A DNA stretch of 52,355 nucleotides from an uncultured Bacteroidales bacterium (GTDB lineage: Bacteria > Bacteroidota > Bacteroidia > Bacteroidales > Bacteroidaceae), in the NCBI GenBank assembly GCA_902773225.1, contig CACYEC010000077.1:1-52355 (forward strand), written 5' to 3'. Each line of letters begins with the position of its first letter. Within the stretch, counting starts at the first letter, position 1. The notes beneath the pieces are model-generated. The model was not told the origin of the DNA and did not search any database. It saw only the letters and a list, made by a program, of their open reading frames with translations. Both the position numbers and the translations under genes were made by a program. Below, one piece after another: positions 27,607 through 52,355 of the stretch.

Positions 27607-28734
27607 TCAGCAACTGCTTTTGTTGGAATGCATGCTTTCTTTTATTCTGTTGTAAATCAACAGGAGGAGAGCCCCTGTGGCCTCGCCGTATGAATGGCGT
27701 GCAAAAAGACGGTAATTGTGCAACAGCCGTCTGAACGTATCCTTTCGAGTGGAGGAATTGGTTGTACCTGAGAAACGGATATCACCCTGACCAAAATTGG
27801 CAGTCTGCCAAATCTCCTCCATTAGCGTGTCGGCATCTTTCATACTGCCAGACTCCACTGGGGAGAATTCGTCTGGCATACCTAAGTAGTGAATGAGCGC
27901 TGTCATCAGACAACGTGTCCACCCTATCATCTTCCAGTCTGATGCCCAACGTGAGAACTCATCACGCTGAATACGGTCACGCTCTTTACTCAGGAAGAGC
28001 GCAATGTCAGCCATCTGCCGTAAGCCAATACCACTATTGATGACATGCTTGTAACTGTGGCTAACCAACTGAAGCAATGCCAAAGTGGGATTGAGCGTCG
28101 TAATGTCAGAGCCTTGTATATCGACCTGACAATATGCATCTCTCGATGATAGAACGTCAAGCAATCGTTTTTTTGCCGATGTCCGGACCAACGGGTTATA
28201 ACTTAAGAATAAGTGCCCGTGATTCTCCACCACCACGTTACCGAGCATGAAGATTGACTCTTCATTGAGTAAACGCTGGATGTGAATCCCCCACCCCTCG
28301 ATAACGTCATCAGCCTCACGCTTGCGATCCACAGAACCGTAGAACAAGTCAATGTCACCTGAGAAACGGTGTTGTGGATATGGATAGCACGACGATAAGA
28401 CCAAACCTTTCAGCACCACAGGCGTGATGTCTGAAGCCTGGAACCGCCCGTAGAGATAATTGACAGTCCGCAACTGCCCGAGGTATGCTTTCTCCTGCCG
28501 AGCAACACTCTCCGACCATATTGTCATCAAACGCCCTTTGGGCCGTAAGGGCTCAGGAAGAGAGGTGATGGCATCGAAGACAACCGACTGCATGGTATGC
28601 CTCATAGCGGTGGTATAAATCCATTGCCACTCAGGGTCAGAAATCGGCAACAAACTCGTGTCGGACTCAATCTTCCACATCGCTGAACGCAACAGTTGCA
28701 GAAACAGCGACTTCAGTTTGACCTCATCCAACAT
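27607..28734 (-). CDS. Uncharacterised nucleotidyltransferase-family protein (pol-beta superfamily, NTP_transf_5-like)
   Basis: RFSGDIDLFYG fits the G[SG]-x-D-x-D pol-beta nucleotidyltransferase signature. The length and helical C-terminal half are typical of this family in capsule loci. The assignment is from memory. Confidence 0.55.
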   Translation of the reverse strand: MLDEVKLKSLFLQLLRSAMWKIESDTSLLPISDPEWQWIYTTAMRHTMQSVVFDAITSLPEPLRPKGRLMTIWSESVARQEKAYLGQLRTVNYLYGRFQASDITPVVLKGLVLSSCYPYPQHRFSGDIDLFYGSVDRKREADDVIEGWGIHIQRLLNEESIFMLGNVVVENHGHLFLSYNPLVRTSAKKRLLDVLSSRDAYCQVDIQGSDITTLNPTLALLQLVSHSYKHVINSGIGLRQMADIALFLSKERDRIQRDEFSRWASDWKMIGWTRCLMTALIHYLGMPDEFSPVESGSMKDADTLMEEIWQTANFGQGDIRFSGTTNSSTRKDTFRRLLHNYRLFARHSYGEATGALLLLIYNRIKESMHSNKSSC

Positions 28735-28827
28735 GTATGGTCGATAATCTAAAATGCAATTAAACGAGGGCAGAGTTGAAGATGTTCAAACTATGTCGAG
28801 CATGAGCATTTTAGGCGATGCCAATGG

Positions 28828-29985
28828 TCAACGCTCAATGACAAAGCCCTTAATGATGTCAACAATTCGCTCCACGTCGTCGTTGGAAACCATCGGACCT
28901 GACGGAAGGCAAAGACCGCAATTAAACATCCGCTCCGACACACCGTTGATATATGCTGGTGCCTGAGAGAATACAGGTTGCAAGTGCATGGGTTTCCAGA
29001 GCGGACGGCTCTCGATGTCATGACTGGCCAACAAGTTCGCCAAAGTACGATAATCCTTGCCTCCCAGTCTTTCTGCATCCACGCAGATGCAACTGAGCCA
29101 GTAATTGGGGCCGATAGGTCTGTCAGCCTTTGGTTCCATCACGCTGATGCCTTCCACACCAGAGAGCATGGAGGCGTACATGTGGTGTATCTCTATGCGT
29201 CTGGCCAAATGCTGGTCAACAACCTGCATCTGGCCTCGTCCTATTCCAGCGCTAACATTGCTCAAGCGGTAGTTGTATCCTATGCGCTCATGTTGGTAAT
29301 AAGGGAAGTTCTCACGAGCCTGTGTGGCGTAGAACTTCACTCTGTCGGCATCTTCCTTGCTTCGGCATATCAACGCACCTCCACCACTTGTGGTAATCAT
29401 CTTGTTGCCGTTGAACGACATCACGCCGAAACGGCCGAAAGTGCCACAATGGAATCCATCGTAGGTCGAGCCCATAGCCTCGGCAGAATCCTCGAGGACG
29501 GGTATGTCGTACTTACTCGCCACAGCCATAATCTGACCGATTTTGGCTGGATTGCCATAGAGATAGACAGGTATAATTGCCTTAGGTTTCTTTCCTGTCT
29601 TGTTGATGCGGTCGTGAATGGCTTCTTCCAGTAACCCAGGATCCATGTTCCATGTGTCTGTCTCACTATCGACAAACACAGGTGTAGCACCCTGGTAGGT
29701 GATGGGATTGGCAGAAGCGGCAAAAGTGAAACTCTGGCAAATCACTTCATCACCCTTCCCTACGCCCAGCATGACTAACCCCAAATGAATGGCCGCAGTG
29801 CCAGCGCTCAAGGCCACCACATGGTTCTCATGGTCGCTCTTTTGGTTAAGCCACTGCTCAAGGTCGTTCTCAAATCCATTGACATTTGGACCAAGAGGCA
29901 CCACCCAATTGGTGTCGAAAGCCTCTTTCACAAAATCACGCTCCGCTCCACCCATATGGGCAAGCGACAACCAAACACGTGCCAT
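28828..29985 (-). CDS. PLP-dependent sugar aminotransferase (DegT/DnrJ/EryC1/StrS family)
   Basis: Conserved N-terminal GAERDFVKEAFDTNWV. Active-site lysine context SFNGNKMITTSGGGAL. C-terminal LCLPSG. Confidence 0.9.
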   Translation of the reverse strand: MARVWLSLAHMGGAERDFVKEAFDTNWVVPLGPNVNGFENDLEQWLNQKSDHENHVVALSAGTAAIHLGLVMLGVGKGDEVICQSFTFAASANPITYQGATPVFVDSETDTWNMDPGLLEEAIHDRINKTGKKPKAIIPVYLYGNPAKIGQIMAVASKYDIPVLEDSAEAMGSTYDGFHCGTFGRFGVMSFNGNKMITTSGGGALICRSKEDADRVKFYATQARENFPYYQHERIGYNYRLSNVSAGIGRGQMQVVDQHLARRIEIHHMYASMLSGVEGISVMEPKADRPIGPNYWLSCICVDAERLGGKDYRTLANLLASHDIESRPLWKPMHLQPVFSQAPAYINGVSERMFNCGLCLPSGPMVSNDDVERIVDIIKGFVIER

Positions 29986-50357: not shown

Positions 50358-50394
50358 CTCGTTCACGGGTCTGGGGAAGGTGCTGTTTTCTTAT

Positions 50395-50456
50395 TCTAAG
50401 GAGATGAGGAATAAAGGAGGGAATGCCTGAGGCATTATGGGTGTGCGGAAGGTATG
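50395..50456 (+). repeat. About 60-nt dispersed repeat, copy 1 (purine-rich head plus AATGCC-NNN-GGCATT hairpin plus TGGGTGTGCGGA)
   Basis: TCTAAGGAGATGAGGAATAAAGGAGGGAATGCCTGAGGCATTATGGGTGTGCGGAAGG is roughly 80 percent identical by eye to 51543-51604. Confidence 0.8.
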
Positions 50457-50668
50457 TTTTTTGCAGAAATGGTGGGTTGTCAAATGTTTCATAACAAATG
50501 TTAAAACGAAGGGGTTTATGCAGAAAAGGTATAAAAATCCGTGTTTTTTGGGTGATTTTAGGTGTTTTTTTGTATTTTTATGCAATGTCATATACAAAAA
50601 TGTTTCATGGGTATGACAAAATGAAACATTTTGAAACATGATAAATTGCTCACGCTCGGCATTATTTC

Positions 50669-50710
50669 CATTGACCGTTGACCATTGAGCATGGAACATG
50701 GAGCATGGAC
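50669..50710. repeat. Six tandem degenerate heptamers (CATTGAC CGTTGAC CATTGAG CATGGAA CATGGAG CATGGAC)
   Basis: Read directly. Strict 7-nt phase, consensus CATKGAS. Confidence 0.85.
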
Positions 50711-50787: not shown

Positions 50788-51282
50788 TTAAGGTCTGTTA
50801 ATCTCATCAATCTTGTACTCGTCGCCTTCTTTGATGACCGTTAGCACGACACTGTAATCTTCGTTATCGTACTTGTTTTCCACCAAGAAGTGATTGCCGT
50901 CTTGTTCCTTTACAGTACGTGATATCTCTCCACCTGTATCACCGCCAGCTTCGTAAAAGAAGATCCATGTAGCGAGACATTCGCCCTCACAGTCATACCC
51001 ATATTCATCCTTCAATTGCTGAAGCGCTTTGGGCGTGATGAATTTCTTTACGTAGTCATAGTCGAGCAAGTCATCCCAGTCGGCATAGAATTTCTCAACG
51101 AATGCCTTTTTGGCGTCAATCTCTTGTTGGGATACAGTCACCGTTGCAGCCTCTGGCTCTGCTTCCAGAGACACAATCGTCGTGTCCTCCGGTGCATTGG
51201 CGTTCTCCTGTTTAGTGGGGGTGTTATTGCCGCCGCAACTCATCAAAGCCACCATCGAAAAAATAAAAACAGTCTTTTTCAT
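50788..51282 (-). CDS. Small lipoprotein of unknown function
   Basis: MKKTVFIFSMVALMSC lipobox, a Glu/Thr-rich linker, then a compact Tyr/Asp-rich domain containing a CEGEC pair. Confidence 0.65.
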   Translation of the reverse strand: MKKTVFIFSMVALMSCGGNNTPTKQENANAPEDTTIVSLEAEPEAATVTVSQQEIDAKKAFVEKFYADWDDLLDYDYVKKFITPKALQQLKDEYGYDCEGECLATWIFFYEAGGDTGGEISRTVKEQDGNHFLVENKYDNEDYSVVLTVIKEGDEYKIDEINRP

Positions 51283-51370
51283 TTTGATTGGTAATGATTA
51301 GTGAATAATTGAATCCTTATCCTATCCGATATCAGAAGCAGTCTATAGCTCCTCTCTATCATCAGACTTA

Positions 51371-51378
51371 CAAAATTA
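51371..51378 (-). promoter_or_regulatory. Putative -7 promoter box for the small lipoprotein gene
   Basis: The plus strand reads CAAAATTA, which is TAATTTTG on the minus strand (TAnnTTTG), about 90 nt upstream of the ATG. Confidence 0.3.
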
Positions 51379-51542
51379 ATCCTTTTTTCCTTCATTTTCT
51401 GTATGGCAGATGATTTTTGCAAGTTATTTTGATGCGAAGCGATTTGCATCCGTGTCGGTAGCCACGGATGTGAGAGCTCTACGGACTTAGAGGACTTAGA
51501 GGACTGGCCGCAAGCGCGGCCTGGGGACTATTCGATTGTTAG

Positions 51543-51604
51543 TCTAAGGAGAGAAGGAGGAAATGAGGGAACGCCTAAAGGCATTCTGGGTGTGCGGATG
51601 ATGG
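51543..51604 (+). repeat. About 60-nt dispersed repeat, copy 2
   Basis: TCTAAGGAGAGAAGGAGGAAATGAGGGAACGCCTAAAGGCATTCTGGGTGTGCGGATG, same orientation as copy 1. It ends about 50 nt before CRISPR mini-array A. Confidence 0.8.
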
Positions 51605-51652
51605 GCACAAGCTATTGTTTTTCGCTTATTTCGCCTCGTTTTCGTTTTTTTC

Positions 51653-51982
51653 GTAGTTAATCCTTGTTGTAGTGGGACAAGCCGACTAAGCGAGGGCAGA
51701 GCCAAGCTCGCTTGAACTATGCCGAGCGTGAGGGTTGAAGGCGAAGCCAATTAGGTCTCTGACATAGCTGGTATTATGGATGTACAATGACCTACGAAAA
51801 GTCTTAATCCTTGTTTTAGTGGAAGTAGGTCTCTGACGCAGCACATCTACGATCTGACCGCCGAAAAGGGCTGGTCTTAATCCTTGTTTTAGTGGAAAAT
51901 GGTTTACGACGAACAGTTGACTCGCACTCCTCATCCGTTACCATCGTCTTAATCCTTATTTTAGTGGAAGTAGGTCTCTAAA
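51653..51982. CRISPR. CRISPR mini-array A: a 111-nt split repeat, three spacers (37, 36, 35 nt) and three 37-nt repeats. Transcription direction unresolved.
   Basis: Repeats at 51653-51763 (long form), 51801-51837 (GTCTTAATCCTTGTTTTAGTGGAAGTAGGTCTCTGAC), 51874-51910 (3' half variant) and 51946-51982 (degenerate end ...CTCTAAA). The spacers are unrelated to each other. The minus-strand reading ends in ATTAAGAC, similar to the ATTGAAAC-type handle of Cas6-processed repeats. Confidence 0.8.
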
Positions 51983-51984
51983 TC

Positions 51985-52042
51985 ACGAAATATGCGAAAA
52001 TTAACGAAATATGCGAAAATTAACGAAATACACGAAAACTTA
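51985..52042 (+). repeat. Three tandem 19-20-nt units (ACGAAATATGCGAAAATTA x2, ACGAAATACACGAAAACTTA) between the two arrays
   Basis: Read directly. Units at 51985-52003, 52004-52022 and 52023-52042. Confidence 0.9.
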
Positions 52043-52119
52043 CTCATACATACTCATCAGCAAAGTTACCAAACATTTTGCTGATAGCAAAACTATTTTC
52101 GCTTATTTCGACTTTTTTC

Positions 52120-52355
52120 GTAGTTAATCCTTGTTTCAGTGGGACAACCCGATTGAGCGAGGGCAGAGCCAAACTCGCTTGAACTATGCCGAGCGTGAGG
52201 GTTGAAGGCGAAGCCAATTAGGTCTCTGACACGTTCTCATCTAATCTGACGGATTTCATCTCTGCTGTGTCTTAATCCTTGTTGTGCTGGAAGTAGGTCT
52301 CTGACGGCCCGACAGCGAGGGTGGAAAAGAGGCAGGTGGCGAGTCTTAATCCTTG
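52120..52355. CRISPR. CRISPR mini-array B: a 111-nt split repeat, two spacers (38, 37 nt), one full repeat and a repeat cut by the window edge
   Basis: Long repeat at 52120-52230. Repeat at 52269-52305 (GTCTTAATCCTTGTTGTGCTGGAAGTAGGTCTCTGAC). A repeat starts at 52343 (GTCTTAATCCTTG...) and runs off the window. Confidence 0.8.

Follow-up and report, generated by a model that had tools for sequence, protein, structure and literature searches.

A small folded repeat element in the trailer-end repeats of Bacteroidales CRISPR arrays

Two CRISPR arrays lie at the right-hand end of a 52,355-nt stretch of DNA from an uncultured Bacteroidales bacterium, the whole of which was analyzed (hereafter, the window). 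Each contains one repeat of 111 nt, and the question is what the extra sequence is and how it came to reside within a CRISPR repeat. The arrays are otherwise of regular construction, with 37-nt direct repeats and unique spacers of 35-38 nt. In both long repeats, the 5′ and 3′ pieces of the 37-nt repeat flank a 76-nt insert and are in sense orientation, as described in an earlier sequence-only reading of this DNA. That reading was also correct in that: the spacers adjoining the two long repeats are unrelated; a common flank of ~30-40 nt accompanies both, as part of a direct-repeat family (D1, 138 nt, 89% identical); and the insert, at 58% G+C, is more GC-rich than the window (47%) or the repeat (41%). 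Its placement of all differences between the two inserts in the 5′ third is nearly right: on the plus strand, three of them fall in the first 14 bases and the fourth at base 31. Two origins were offered: an accessory RNA made by the CRISPR system, or a small insertion fixed before the array was duplicated. Our analysis favors the latter, because copies of the same element that are not part of a CRISPR array occur in this window, in a related species and on viral contigs. The features are collected in Table 1.

Table 1. Positions of the CRISPR features and element copies in the window
Feature	Position	Strand	Details
Intact non-CRISPR copy	28750..28825	-	Model R1 78 bits, E 6e-19
Decayed copy	50640..50705	+	TAAATTG plus 14-mer CTCACGCTCGGCAT, directly followed by heptad repeats (CCATTGACCGTTGACCATTGAGCATGG)
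Trailer module, CGAAA-rich, duplicated with long repeat	51611..51652	-	Second copy ~52083-52119
Long repeat A, terminal (trailer-end) repeat of array 1	51653..51763	-	GTCAGAGACCTA + 76 nt + CCACTACAACAAGGATTAACTAC
Element copy A	51676..51751	-	Model R1 103 bits, model R2 89 bits
Array 1 body	51801..51982	-	Repeats 51946-51982 (first; 5′ end degenerate), 51874-51910, 51801-51837
Array 1 leader	51983..52119	-	Bacteroidetes-type promoter TTTG-N19-TAACTTTG, ~52061-52091
Long repeat B, terminal repeat of array 2	52120..52230	-	
Element copy B	52143..52218	-	4 of 76 positions differ from those of copy A; P1 helix CAACCC/GGGTTG perfect
Array 2 distal end	52231..52355	-	Repeat 52269-52305; repeat from 52342 onward cut by the window edge; array continues rightwards

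The arrays are transcribed on the minus strand from promoters in their leaders. This assignment follows from: the Rfam model CRISPR-DR7, which matches the repeats on the minus strand only (24.6 bits, under the gathering score of 37; E 0.064); the orientation of related arrays, in which the leaders adjoin cas genes and the last repeats are degenerate; and the promoter motif TTTG-N18/19-TAnnTTTG, which is present on the minus strand and was not found on the plus strand of positions 51200-52355. The long repeats, which had been taken to begin the arrays, are thus the last repeats, the terminal position of long repeat A resting on this strand assignment. The term mini-array is likewise wrong for array 2, as at least eight further repeats are found on metagenome contigs of the same organism. 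When read on the minus strand, the array repeat is GTCAGAGACCTACTTCCACTAAAACAAGGATTAAGAC and terminates in the 8-nt tag ATTAAGAC. The spacers of array 1 measure 35, 36 and 37 nt, the last of these spacers being located at 51764-51800; its leader contains three 19-nt tandem units (51980-52036), and the upstream part of this leader also serves as the trailer of array 2.

Judged by their sequence, the arrays probably belong to a Bacteroidales type III (Cas6b/Csm) repeat family. Near-identical repeats adjoin Cas6b, Cas10 and Csm2-5 at one locus (L044), and Card1, Csx20, Cas1, a CRISPR primase-polymerase and Cas2 at another (L013). The 8-nt tag is shared with the type III-B repeat of Bacteroides fragilis (PMC9367070). 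No cas gene or other defence gene is present among the 40 ORFs of the window (PADLOC), in agreement with the earlier observation that cas genes are missing here; a location beyond the right edge, as had been proposed, fits the corrected orientation, in which the array 2 leader is directed to that side. A scan of viral contigs for the repeat family, a blastn comparison of the long repeat with plasmid and phage genomes, and a first metagenome search pattern specific to the long repeat each returned no match. Contigs with homologues of the gene upstream of the array in L011 all end at the leader and contain no further long repeats.

Each 76-base insert represents a copy of a small folded repeat element, and this element is not specific to CRISPR. 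Covariance models built from the insert (R1 and R2) identify a third intact copy elsewhere in the window. This copy fills the 93-nt spacer between a DegT aminotransferase gene (28828-29985) and the next gene (27607-28734), both of which are polysaccharide-synthesis genes on the same strand as the element, and it is present in four of four strain contigs. The decayed copy in the window contains an exact match of the 14-mer; its core recurs together with the heptads in L053 and L056, and R1/R2 matches are also present in L053, L056 and L057. A 14-nt match at 50649 was considered as a target for RNA-RNA pairing and is better explained as this decayed copy, with the same heptad flanks. In a related species, a copy is present where there is no array at this locus, and a further 11 copies are found on eight predicted viral contigs. 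A weak model match at 1360-1389 of L051/L052 was judged to be an unrelated hairpin.

One of these viral copies (L069; phage contig IMGVR_UViG_3300045988_160793) is located precisely within the T-loop of a tRNA-Arg(TCT) gene, where removal of 72 nt restores a canonical tRNA-Arg cloverleaf. Orientation with respect to the flanking genes is sense for the copies at window position 28750 and in L065, L066, L075 and L076, for the tRNA copy, and for all CRISPR copies; the opposite orientation is seen for three copies, of which two are in L077 and one is in L078. Family members range from 71 to 87 nt with indels that are not multiples of three, and the motifs inside the element do not vary although host G+C content spans 39-65%. 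Identity of the window copies is 76-80% with non-CRISPR copies and only 53-61% with the copies in L011 and L022.

The description of the insert as a conserved structured module is borne out by comparison of the copies, and part of the fold drawn for it is retained. The element is built from a 5′ GGC-NNN-GCC mini-hairpin, the closing helix P1, two paired invariant motifs, GGCAUAG/CUCUGC (P2), and the apical hairpin P3. Of the pairings proposed earlier, the CAACCC/GGGTTG helix corresponds to P1 and is a family feature with strong covariation, and one of the two GGC-NNN-GCC mini-hairpins is likewise a feature of the family. The proposed main stem of 7 bp (AAGCGAG/CTCGCTT) fails, as it is broken in the strain variant L060B (AAGCGTG/CTCGCAT) and absent from other family members; the GGGAC/GTCTC closing helix that would use the repeat half is absent in relatives. 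Across 20 distinct copies, in alignments that were fitted to the model and hence favor the structure, 92.6% of cells are paired, as compared to 75.7 ± 1.2 in shuffles (0 of 500) and 34-49% when the partners are slid. In the same copies, 11 pairs are changed on both sides, the covariation score is 0.44 versus 0.145, and there are 30 G.U cells versus three A.C cells, which favors the crRNA-sense strand and makes the fold strand-specific. Folding energy gave no such signal: no version of the long repeat was significantly better than shuffled sequence on either strand (z +0.7 to -1.9).

No described family accounts for this element. A scan against Rfam 15 with the CRISPR copies, the copy at 28750 and L053, which included ribozymes, introns and Bacteroidales sRNAs and had been called for by the sequence-only reading, identified no RNA family at E up to 10 beyond chance-level matches, and a literature search for the motifs returned irrelevant matches only. 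The sequence-only reading had named a match to a known MITE, IS terminus or unrelated Rfam family as grounds against a repeat-embedded accessory RNA; the presence of copies outside CRISPR comes close to this, although they belong to no described family. A tRNA origin was rejected since the 76-nt insert has no tRNA-like match, and reading the long repeat as a degenerate repeat-spacer-repeat (111 = 3 × 37) was rejected since its inner parts are unlike the repeat.

By comparison with normal repeats and with the sister strain L060, copy A may be regarded as 73 nt cleanly inserted into the repeat at CTT^CCA, accompanied by a C-to-A change in the CTT before it. On this reading, the window long repeat is 111 = 38 + 73 nt; that of L011 is 116 = 37 + 79 nt. 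In this second array lineage (L011 and L022), a diverged copy of the element occupies the identical position CTT^CCA with the tag intact, and one copy is internal to the array. In L060, the terminal repeat of array 1 is of normal length and is a fusion of the 5′ part of repeat R1 with the 3′ half of the long repeat; neither the insert nor the last spacer remains, and the same trailer module is present. This loss, by recombination between repeats, is the sole case of presence/absence polymorphism observed. Other arrays of the family have ordinary terminal repeats, and the element is in sense orientation in five of five complete long-repeat arrays.

Together, these data suggest that a dispersed structured element was inserted into a type III terminal repeat and is tolerated there, rather than being CRISPR machinery; we consider this the probable explanation. 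An ordinary type III repeat, processed by Cas6b and bearing the 8-nt tag, would have received an element of ~73-79 nt between T15 and C16. Within the last repeat, at the 3′ end of the pre-crRNA, the element has the sense orientation, and the long repeat retains an intact 3′ stem-loop and cleavage region. Cas6b would then still be able to cut the long repeat and type III 3′ trimming would remove the extra RNA, so that immunity should be unaffected. Tolerance and inheritance of the insertion may be explained by its position, as the trailer-end repeat is never renewed by adaptation and has no crRNA downstream. The element was presumably copied when the terminal repeat-plus-trailer module was duplicated, and could be lost through recombination between repeats. 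Mobility is suggested by dispersal only, as no transposase was identified and neither terminal inverted repeats nor a clear target-site duplication could be found. What speaks against a merely tolerated insertion is that the same repeat position is occupied in a second lineage with the tag intact, since such persistence or recurrence could mean usefulness, and that every one of the complete long-repeat arrays carries the element in sense.

The same observations could be read as use rather than tolerance. If the element were an RNA module with a function in cis, such as 3′-end protection, a processing site or transcription attenuation, the arrays may have adopted it as a cap for the 3′ end of the pre-crRNA, much as it lies between the cistrons of operons. 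The strand-specific, covarying fold, the sense orientation of most copies, a location that is in every case at the distal end of the array or close to it, the shared site in two lineages, and the type VI-B long repeat, which is also distal and processed, are each consistent with this proposal. We nevertheless regard it as unlikely, if deserving of consideration: L060 lost the element and its array remains; most arrays of the family lack it; the L077 and L078 copies are antisense; the closing helix of the CRISPR copies is not followed by a U-tract; and the folding energy is no better than shuffled. The insertion in the phage tRNA raises the further possibility that the element is intron-like, and is tolerated in RNA genes (the tRNA T-loop and the CRISPR repeat) because it is excised or cleaved from the transcript. 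Its exact DNA boundaries in the tRNA, with the cloverleaf restored upon removal, its invariant internal motifs in hosts of such different G+C content and its strand-specific fold would all agree with RNA removal. This becomes improbable given that no Rfam ribozyme or intron family is matched at the threshold above, that excision would be purposeless for the intergenic copies, which are the majority, that no conserved splice-site-like 3′ end is present, and that the tRNA may be merely a disrupted gene.

An accessory RNA dedicated to CRISPR, whether tracr- or scout-like or a CreA-like pseudo-crRNA, possibly on the plus strand, was suggested by the sense repeat halves flanking the element, by the capacity of the plus-strand 5′ repeat half to pair with the insert, and by one compensatory change between copies A and B. 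This is now largely refuted and very improbable: the element exists without any repeat context; the plus strand has no Bacteroidetes-type promoter; the excess of G.U over A.C cells favors the crRNA-sense strand; and L011 and L022 do not preserve the pairing between the repeat half and the insert. In addition, type III systems use Cas6 and not tracrRNA. A coding function can practically be dismissed. TTG-initiated ORFs (MASPSTLTLGIVQ...) of 68 and 57 aa do cover both inserts, three of six differences between the copies are synonymous, and L011 differs in length by a multiple of three. Yet no homologue was found among 5.8 billion proteins, no gene is called there in the fetched contigs, the indels within the family do not come in multiples of three, and conservation tracks base pairs, not codons.

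With insertion of a dispersed element as the preferred explanation, known sequences of similar kind can be considered. REP/BIME, Correia/NEMIS, ERIC, BOX/RUP and Rickettsia palindromic elements are small non-autonomous repeats that are co-transcribed with genes. Like these, the present element is ~75 nt in length, multi-copy, dispersed in intergenic or intercistronic positions and able to form stable stem-loops; it can land in functional genes, including RNA genes, and one of its positions, that in array 1, differs between strains. Unlike these, it has no terminal inverted repeats, no transposase was identified with it, it adopts a nested three-helix fold with invariant internal motifs in place of a simple palindrome, and it is strongly strand-specific and common to Bacteroidales chromosomes and G+C-rich phage-like contigs. 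REP/RAYT or IS200/IS605-derived elements have strand-specific hairpins that are recognized as single-stranded DNA, together with a partner Y1 transposase gene; of these features, the element shows a strand-specific structure. Terminal inverted repeats of the MITE kind were not found, the 5′ end being TTGGCUUCGCC and the 3′ end the variable P1 arm. As to a target-site duplication, TT is present at both ends of the copies in L011, L022, L060B, L053, L065, L066, L072, L075 and L078, but not of window copies A and B, the window copy at 28750 or the tRNA copy. Nor do the copies resemble intrinsic terminators: the CRISPR copies are followed by CCACUAC... and an A-rich trailer, and most copies have one or two U after P1.

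IS or MITE insertions reportedly interrupt CRISPR arrays or cas genes, with one example said to date from 2023. The element shares with these the presence of a mobile or repeated sequence within a CRISPR locus. It differs in that both functional repeat halves are intact, the site is the trailer-end repeat, and the same nucleotide position is used in two lineages with different element subfamilies. As in CreA, tracrRNA and scoutRNA, a repeat-like sequence is joined to RNA that is not a spacer; in contrast to these, there is no anti-repeat and no pseudo-spacer with a target, and the element is not CRISPR-specific. Furthermore, tracrRNA and scoutRNA serve type II or type V effectors, whereas the relatives here are type III, which do not use such RNAs.

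The earlier statement that no CRISPR class has a sense-oriented repeat split in this way is wrong, since type VI-B arrays have a distal "long DR" that is processed and functional (bioRxiv 10.1101/092577). In Bergeyella zoohelcum, the long direct repeat of the type VI-B (Cas13b) system is processed to a long, still functional crRNA (Smargon et al. 2017; bioRxiv 10.1101/092577). By our comparison, this appears to be the closest precedent for the long repeats described here. The likeness, which is by description only, includes: occurrence in Bacteroidetes; a sense repeat whose 5′ and 3′ fragments are separated by a repeated sequence; and presence at the array's distal end, alongside normal repeats. 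The systems differ in that type VI-B has cas13b, 36-nt repeats and 30-nt spacers, while the arrays here appear to be of the type III/Cas6b family with 37-nt repeats and 35-38-nt spacers, and processing of the long repeat is only predicted.

The idea of a CRISPR-built accessory RNA that opens the array is thus replaced by a testable one, in which a small folded element, absent from Rfam and with no literature match found, is present in type III terminal repeats and elsewhere. This extends the distal long DR, whose sole known precedent is in Cas13b arrays, to a Cas6-dependent multi-subunit system, and hints that the distal long repeats of Bacteroidetes share one cause. The element merits study in its own right for its strong covariation, its invariant motifs across very different hosts, and its precise placement within a tRNA loop and a CRISPR repeat. 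On the practical side, it marks a site at which a type III/Cas6b repeat accommodates ~75 nt of additional structured RNA. More speculatively, and with a low probability in our view, it may represent an undescribed class of ~75-nt strand-specific structured elements, common to Bacteroidales and phage-like contigs, with repeated insertion at NTT^S sites in structured-RNA genes. Two subfamilies would then have entered the same type III repeat position independently, and another copy a tRNA T-loop. If true, the element would be either removed at the RNA level, as a new kind of mini-intron or ribozyme, or a portable RNA module, and would explain the distal long repeats of Bacteroidetes arrays generally, those of Cas13b included.

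In each of the two 111-nt units of the window, pieces of the 37-nt repeat flank a 76-nt insert. As the sequence-only reading had proposed, the spacers beside them are unrelated and a flank of ~30-40 nt is common to both (direct-repeat family D1, 138 nt, 89% identical). That reading placed the long repeats at the start of their arrays. The arrays are, however, transcribed from the minus strand, making each long repeat the terminal, trailer-end repeat of its array. Rfam CRISPR-DR7 matches the repeats on the minus strand only (24.6 bits, E 0.064, under the gathering score). The minus-strand repeat is GTCAGAGACCTACTTCCACTAAAACAAGGATTAAGAC, and its 3′ end is the 8-nt tag ATTAAGAC, which also ends a Bacteroides fragilis type III-B repeat (PMC9367070). 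A genome-collection scan recovered arrays at 1-5 differences from the window repeat; read in the equivalent direction, these have a leader and cas genes upstream and a degenerate last repeat. Leaders carry the Bacteroidetes promoter motif TTTG-N18/19-TAnnTTTG on the crRNA strand only; array 1 is preceded by it (Table), and the plus strand of 51200-52355 contains none.

The genes near the related arrays are type III. One locus encodes two copies of Card1, Csx20, a RecD-like helicase, Cas1, a CRISPR primase-polymerase and Cas2; another encodes a WYL regulator, Cas6b, Cas10 and Csm2-5. In the window itself no cas gene was detected, as first noted: PADLOC found neither these nor other defence genes among 40 ORFs. 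The description as a mini-array fails for array 2, which continues for at least 8 further repeats on contigs of the same organism. In this extension (L002; L001), one spacer and its neighbouring repeats occur twice, through a genuine internal duplication or a loop in the assembly.

The array 1 leader has three TTTCG-rich 19-nt tandem units, and the inverse CGAAA motifs occur in the trailer behind each long repeat, so that similar inward-pointing motifs bracket each array. A 63-nt repeat pair, in which a minus-strand hairpin (GAATGCC/GGCGTTC) runs into a pyrimidine tract, lies downstream of two minus-strand transcription units (a lipoprotein gene; array 1) and may be a terminator-like module. 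The trailer region also contains tandem GACTTAGAG units with a GGCCGC-AAGC-GCGGCC hairpin; comparable GACTTACGGC units, also in tandem, precede a related array's leader.

Coordinates of features in the window and in relative contigs (L-numbers)
Feature	Contig	Position	Orientation	Basis
Long repeat, array 1	window	51653-51763	-	
Long repeat, array 2	window	52120-52230	-	
Promoter motif ahead of array 1	window	~52061-52091	-	motif match
Array 1 leader units	window	51980-52036		
Trailers	window	51611-51652, 52083-52119		
63-nt repeat pair	window	50388-50449, 51536-51598		82.5% identical
Trailer-region tandem and hairpin	window	51485-51525		
Similar tandem	L006	400-470		
Duplicated spacer, array 2 extension	L002	1-56, 535-570		
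Third intact element copy	window	28750-28825	sense with both flanking genes	R1, 78 bits, E 6e-19
14-nt match to insert	window	50649-50662	inverted	exact
Heptads	window	50664-50705, 28826-28845		
Heptads	L053	1-36, 113-150		
Heptads	L056	60-100		
Element in tRNA gene	L069	3941-4016		
Paired element copies	L077	10941-11087		
Paired element copies	L072	7616-7861		
Paired element copies	L078	351-1002		
P0001 family protein	L011	307-1422		
RAMP-rich locus	L049	1-15760		

A second array lineage (L011/L022) has long repeats of 116 nt, with the extra sequence at the identical repeat position and the 8-nt tag intact; two copies close an array and a third lies inside one. Compared to normal repeats, the insertion is clean, between T15 and C16 (CTT^CCA). 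The L011 long repeat resolves into 37 + 79 nt and that of the window into 38 + 73 nt, with a C-to-A change directly upstream of the insertion. The 5′ junction is TT|GGC in every copy and most copies end in TT; a 2-bp target duplication is possible, although inconsistent between copies. The inserts of the two lineages are significantly similar in the same orientation only (z 3.7-3.9; 0/1000 shuffles reach the score). Four other arrays of the repeat family end in ordinary repeats. In a strain variant (L060; flanking lipoprotein 98% identical), array 2 retains a third long-repeat variant. The array 1 terminal repeat there is of normal length and combines the 5′ part of repeat R1 with the long repeat's 3′ half, evidently through inter-repeat recombination that deleted the insert and last spacer. 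The insert has been lost from array 1 in this strain. In a related species (lipoprotein 84% identical), there is no array at the corresponding locus; a SusC/SusD locus stands in its place (L050-L059), and homology to the window ends at ~51387 (compared: 51283-51387).

Between a Csx20/MJ1673-like gene and the leader, L011 encodes a 371-aa predicted membrane protein (P0001 family) without a Pfam or NCBIfam match; the search recovered just three homologues, each at this same place, and the protein could act as an ancillary effector of type III systems. L049 carries an unusual RAMP-rich locus, possibly a variant type III system, which encodes RAMP proteins of 467 and 790 aa, CHP04423, MJ1674/MJ1673-like proteins, Card1, a homologue of the transmembrane protein, a PIF1-like helicase, TerB, an M48 peptidase and Cas2.

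The insert belongs to a dispersed element family with a conserved fold. It is GC-rich as claimed (58% G+C; window, 47%), and its two copies do differ at 4 positions. A homologous core lies elsewhere in that related species (L053, L056, L057), ~10 kb from the lipoprotein gene and flanked by heptad tandem repeats; this accounts for an exact 14-nt inverted match in the window, which marks a decayed copy accompanied by these heptads. R1, a covariance model made from four copies, identified a third intact window copy, present in 4/4 strain contigs. It fills the 93-nt gap that separates, within a polysaccharide operon, a DegT aminotransferase gene from its neighbour. At 28826-28845, the heptads beside non-CRISPR copies (GAACATT/GACCATT/GACCATG) extend over the DegT stop codon and the codons just before it; several contigs break inside these heptads, which could be either a component of the element or a target that it prefers. 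In viral contigs, a pattern scan followed by R1 gave 9 significant copies and a second model, R2, 2 more, lying between large genes and usually in sense; three contigs carry two copies each, in tandem or a few hundred bases apart. The Rfam scan proposed as a check matched no family to any copy scanned, the long repeat matched no plasmid or phage genome record, and the element family is absent from Rfam and had no match in the literature.

Folding energy gives no support for a special structure: no long-repeat version on either strand exceeds dinucleotide shuffles (z +0.7 to -1.9). The family shares a 5′ mini-hairpin (YTTGGC-NNN-GCC), a closing helix of 6-7 bp (P1) and an apical hairpin (P3). 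Two motifs, CUCGGCAUAG and CUCUGC(Y)CUC, are invariant and able to pair with each other as P2. P1 is fixed in position and wholly different in sequence between lineages: CAACCC/GGGTTG in the CRISPR copies of the window, AAAATGC/GCATTTT in L053 and the copy at 28750, and AATCTTG/CAAGATT in L011. In alignments fitted to the model, paired cells reach 92.6% across 20 distinct copies against 75.7 ± 1.2 for shuffles (0/500) and 34-49% for slid partners; both-sided changes occur at 11 pairs, and the covariation score is 0.44 against 0.145 shuffled and <=0.12 slid. As P2 never varies, it stays a candidate helix. G.U cells outnumber A.C cells 30 to 3, an excess that assigns the fold to one strand, the one from which crRNA is also read, where, judged from sequence, it would form as RNA or as single-stranded DNA. 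Of the stems drawn in the sequence-only reading, the covarying CAACCC/GGGTTG (P1) survives, as does one of the two GGC-NNN-GCC hairpins. The other mini-hairpin fails, and so do AAGCGAG/CTCGCTT and the helix that extends into the repeat half.

One viral copy interrupts a tRNA. In L069 (IMGVR_UViG_3300045988_160793, a predicted phage contig), the element lies exactly in the T-loop of tRNA-Arg(TCT), at GTT^CGAGT. ARAGORN calls no tRNA as is and a canonical tRNA-Arg(TCT) after removal of 72 nt; the Rfam tRNA model matches the 5′ part of the gene. Just upstream, a sequence ends like a tRNA/tmRNA 3′ end and is called by neither ARAGORN nor Rfam.

The CRISPR copies of the window are 76-80% identical to non-CRISPR copies (L053, L077) and 53-61% to the CRISPR copies of L011/L022, whose nearest relative is L077 (416/500 bootstraps). 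These sequence comparisons weakly favour two independent insertions at one repeat position over a single ancestral event.

On unstructured repeats of this kind Cas6b binds at two sites, between which the insertion would fall. The 3′ stem-loop and cleavage region of the long repeat are intact; Cas6b would still recognize this 3′ module, the element would end the pre-crRNA, and excess RNA would be removed by type III 3′ trimming. The trailer-end repeat would be the safest site for a passenger, because adaptation never replaces it and no guide is made downstream of it. The element is probably a passenger tolerated in the terminal repeat. Exaptation as a 3′ cap or processing site would account for the recurrence, the distal position and the invariably sense orientation, but is unlikely; it is weakened by the loss in L060 and because most arrays lack the element. 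That the element is intron-like or self-processing is suggested by the tRNA case alone and is very improbable. A CRISPR-dedicated accessory RNA, the headline interpretation of the sequence-only reading, falls; it and a small ORF are both nearly excluded.

Among known systems, the type VI-B long direct repeat comes closest: its repeat fragments are split by an intervening repeated sequence, and it is array-distal, processed and active (bioRxiv 10.1101/092577). Compared by description, it looks like the same phenomenon, although the window long repeats, being type III, are not members of that system. The element resembles small co-transcribed repeats of the REP, Correia and RPE classes, but its termini are not inverted, and its fold is nested, specific to one strand and marked by internal motifs that do not vary. 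That a covarying element should recurrently occupy exact sites in a CRISPR repeat and a tRNA loop is unexpected, and it can be tested directly.
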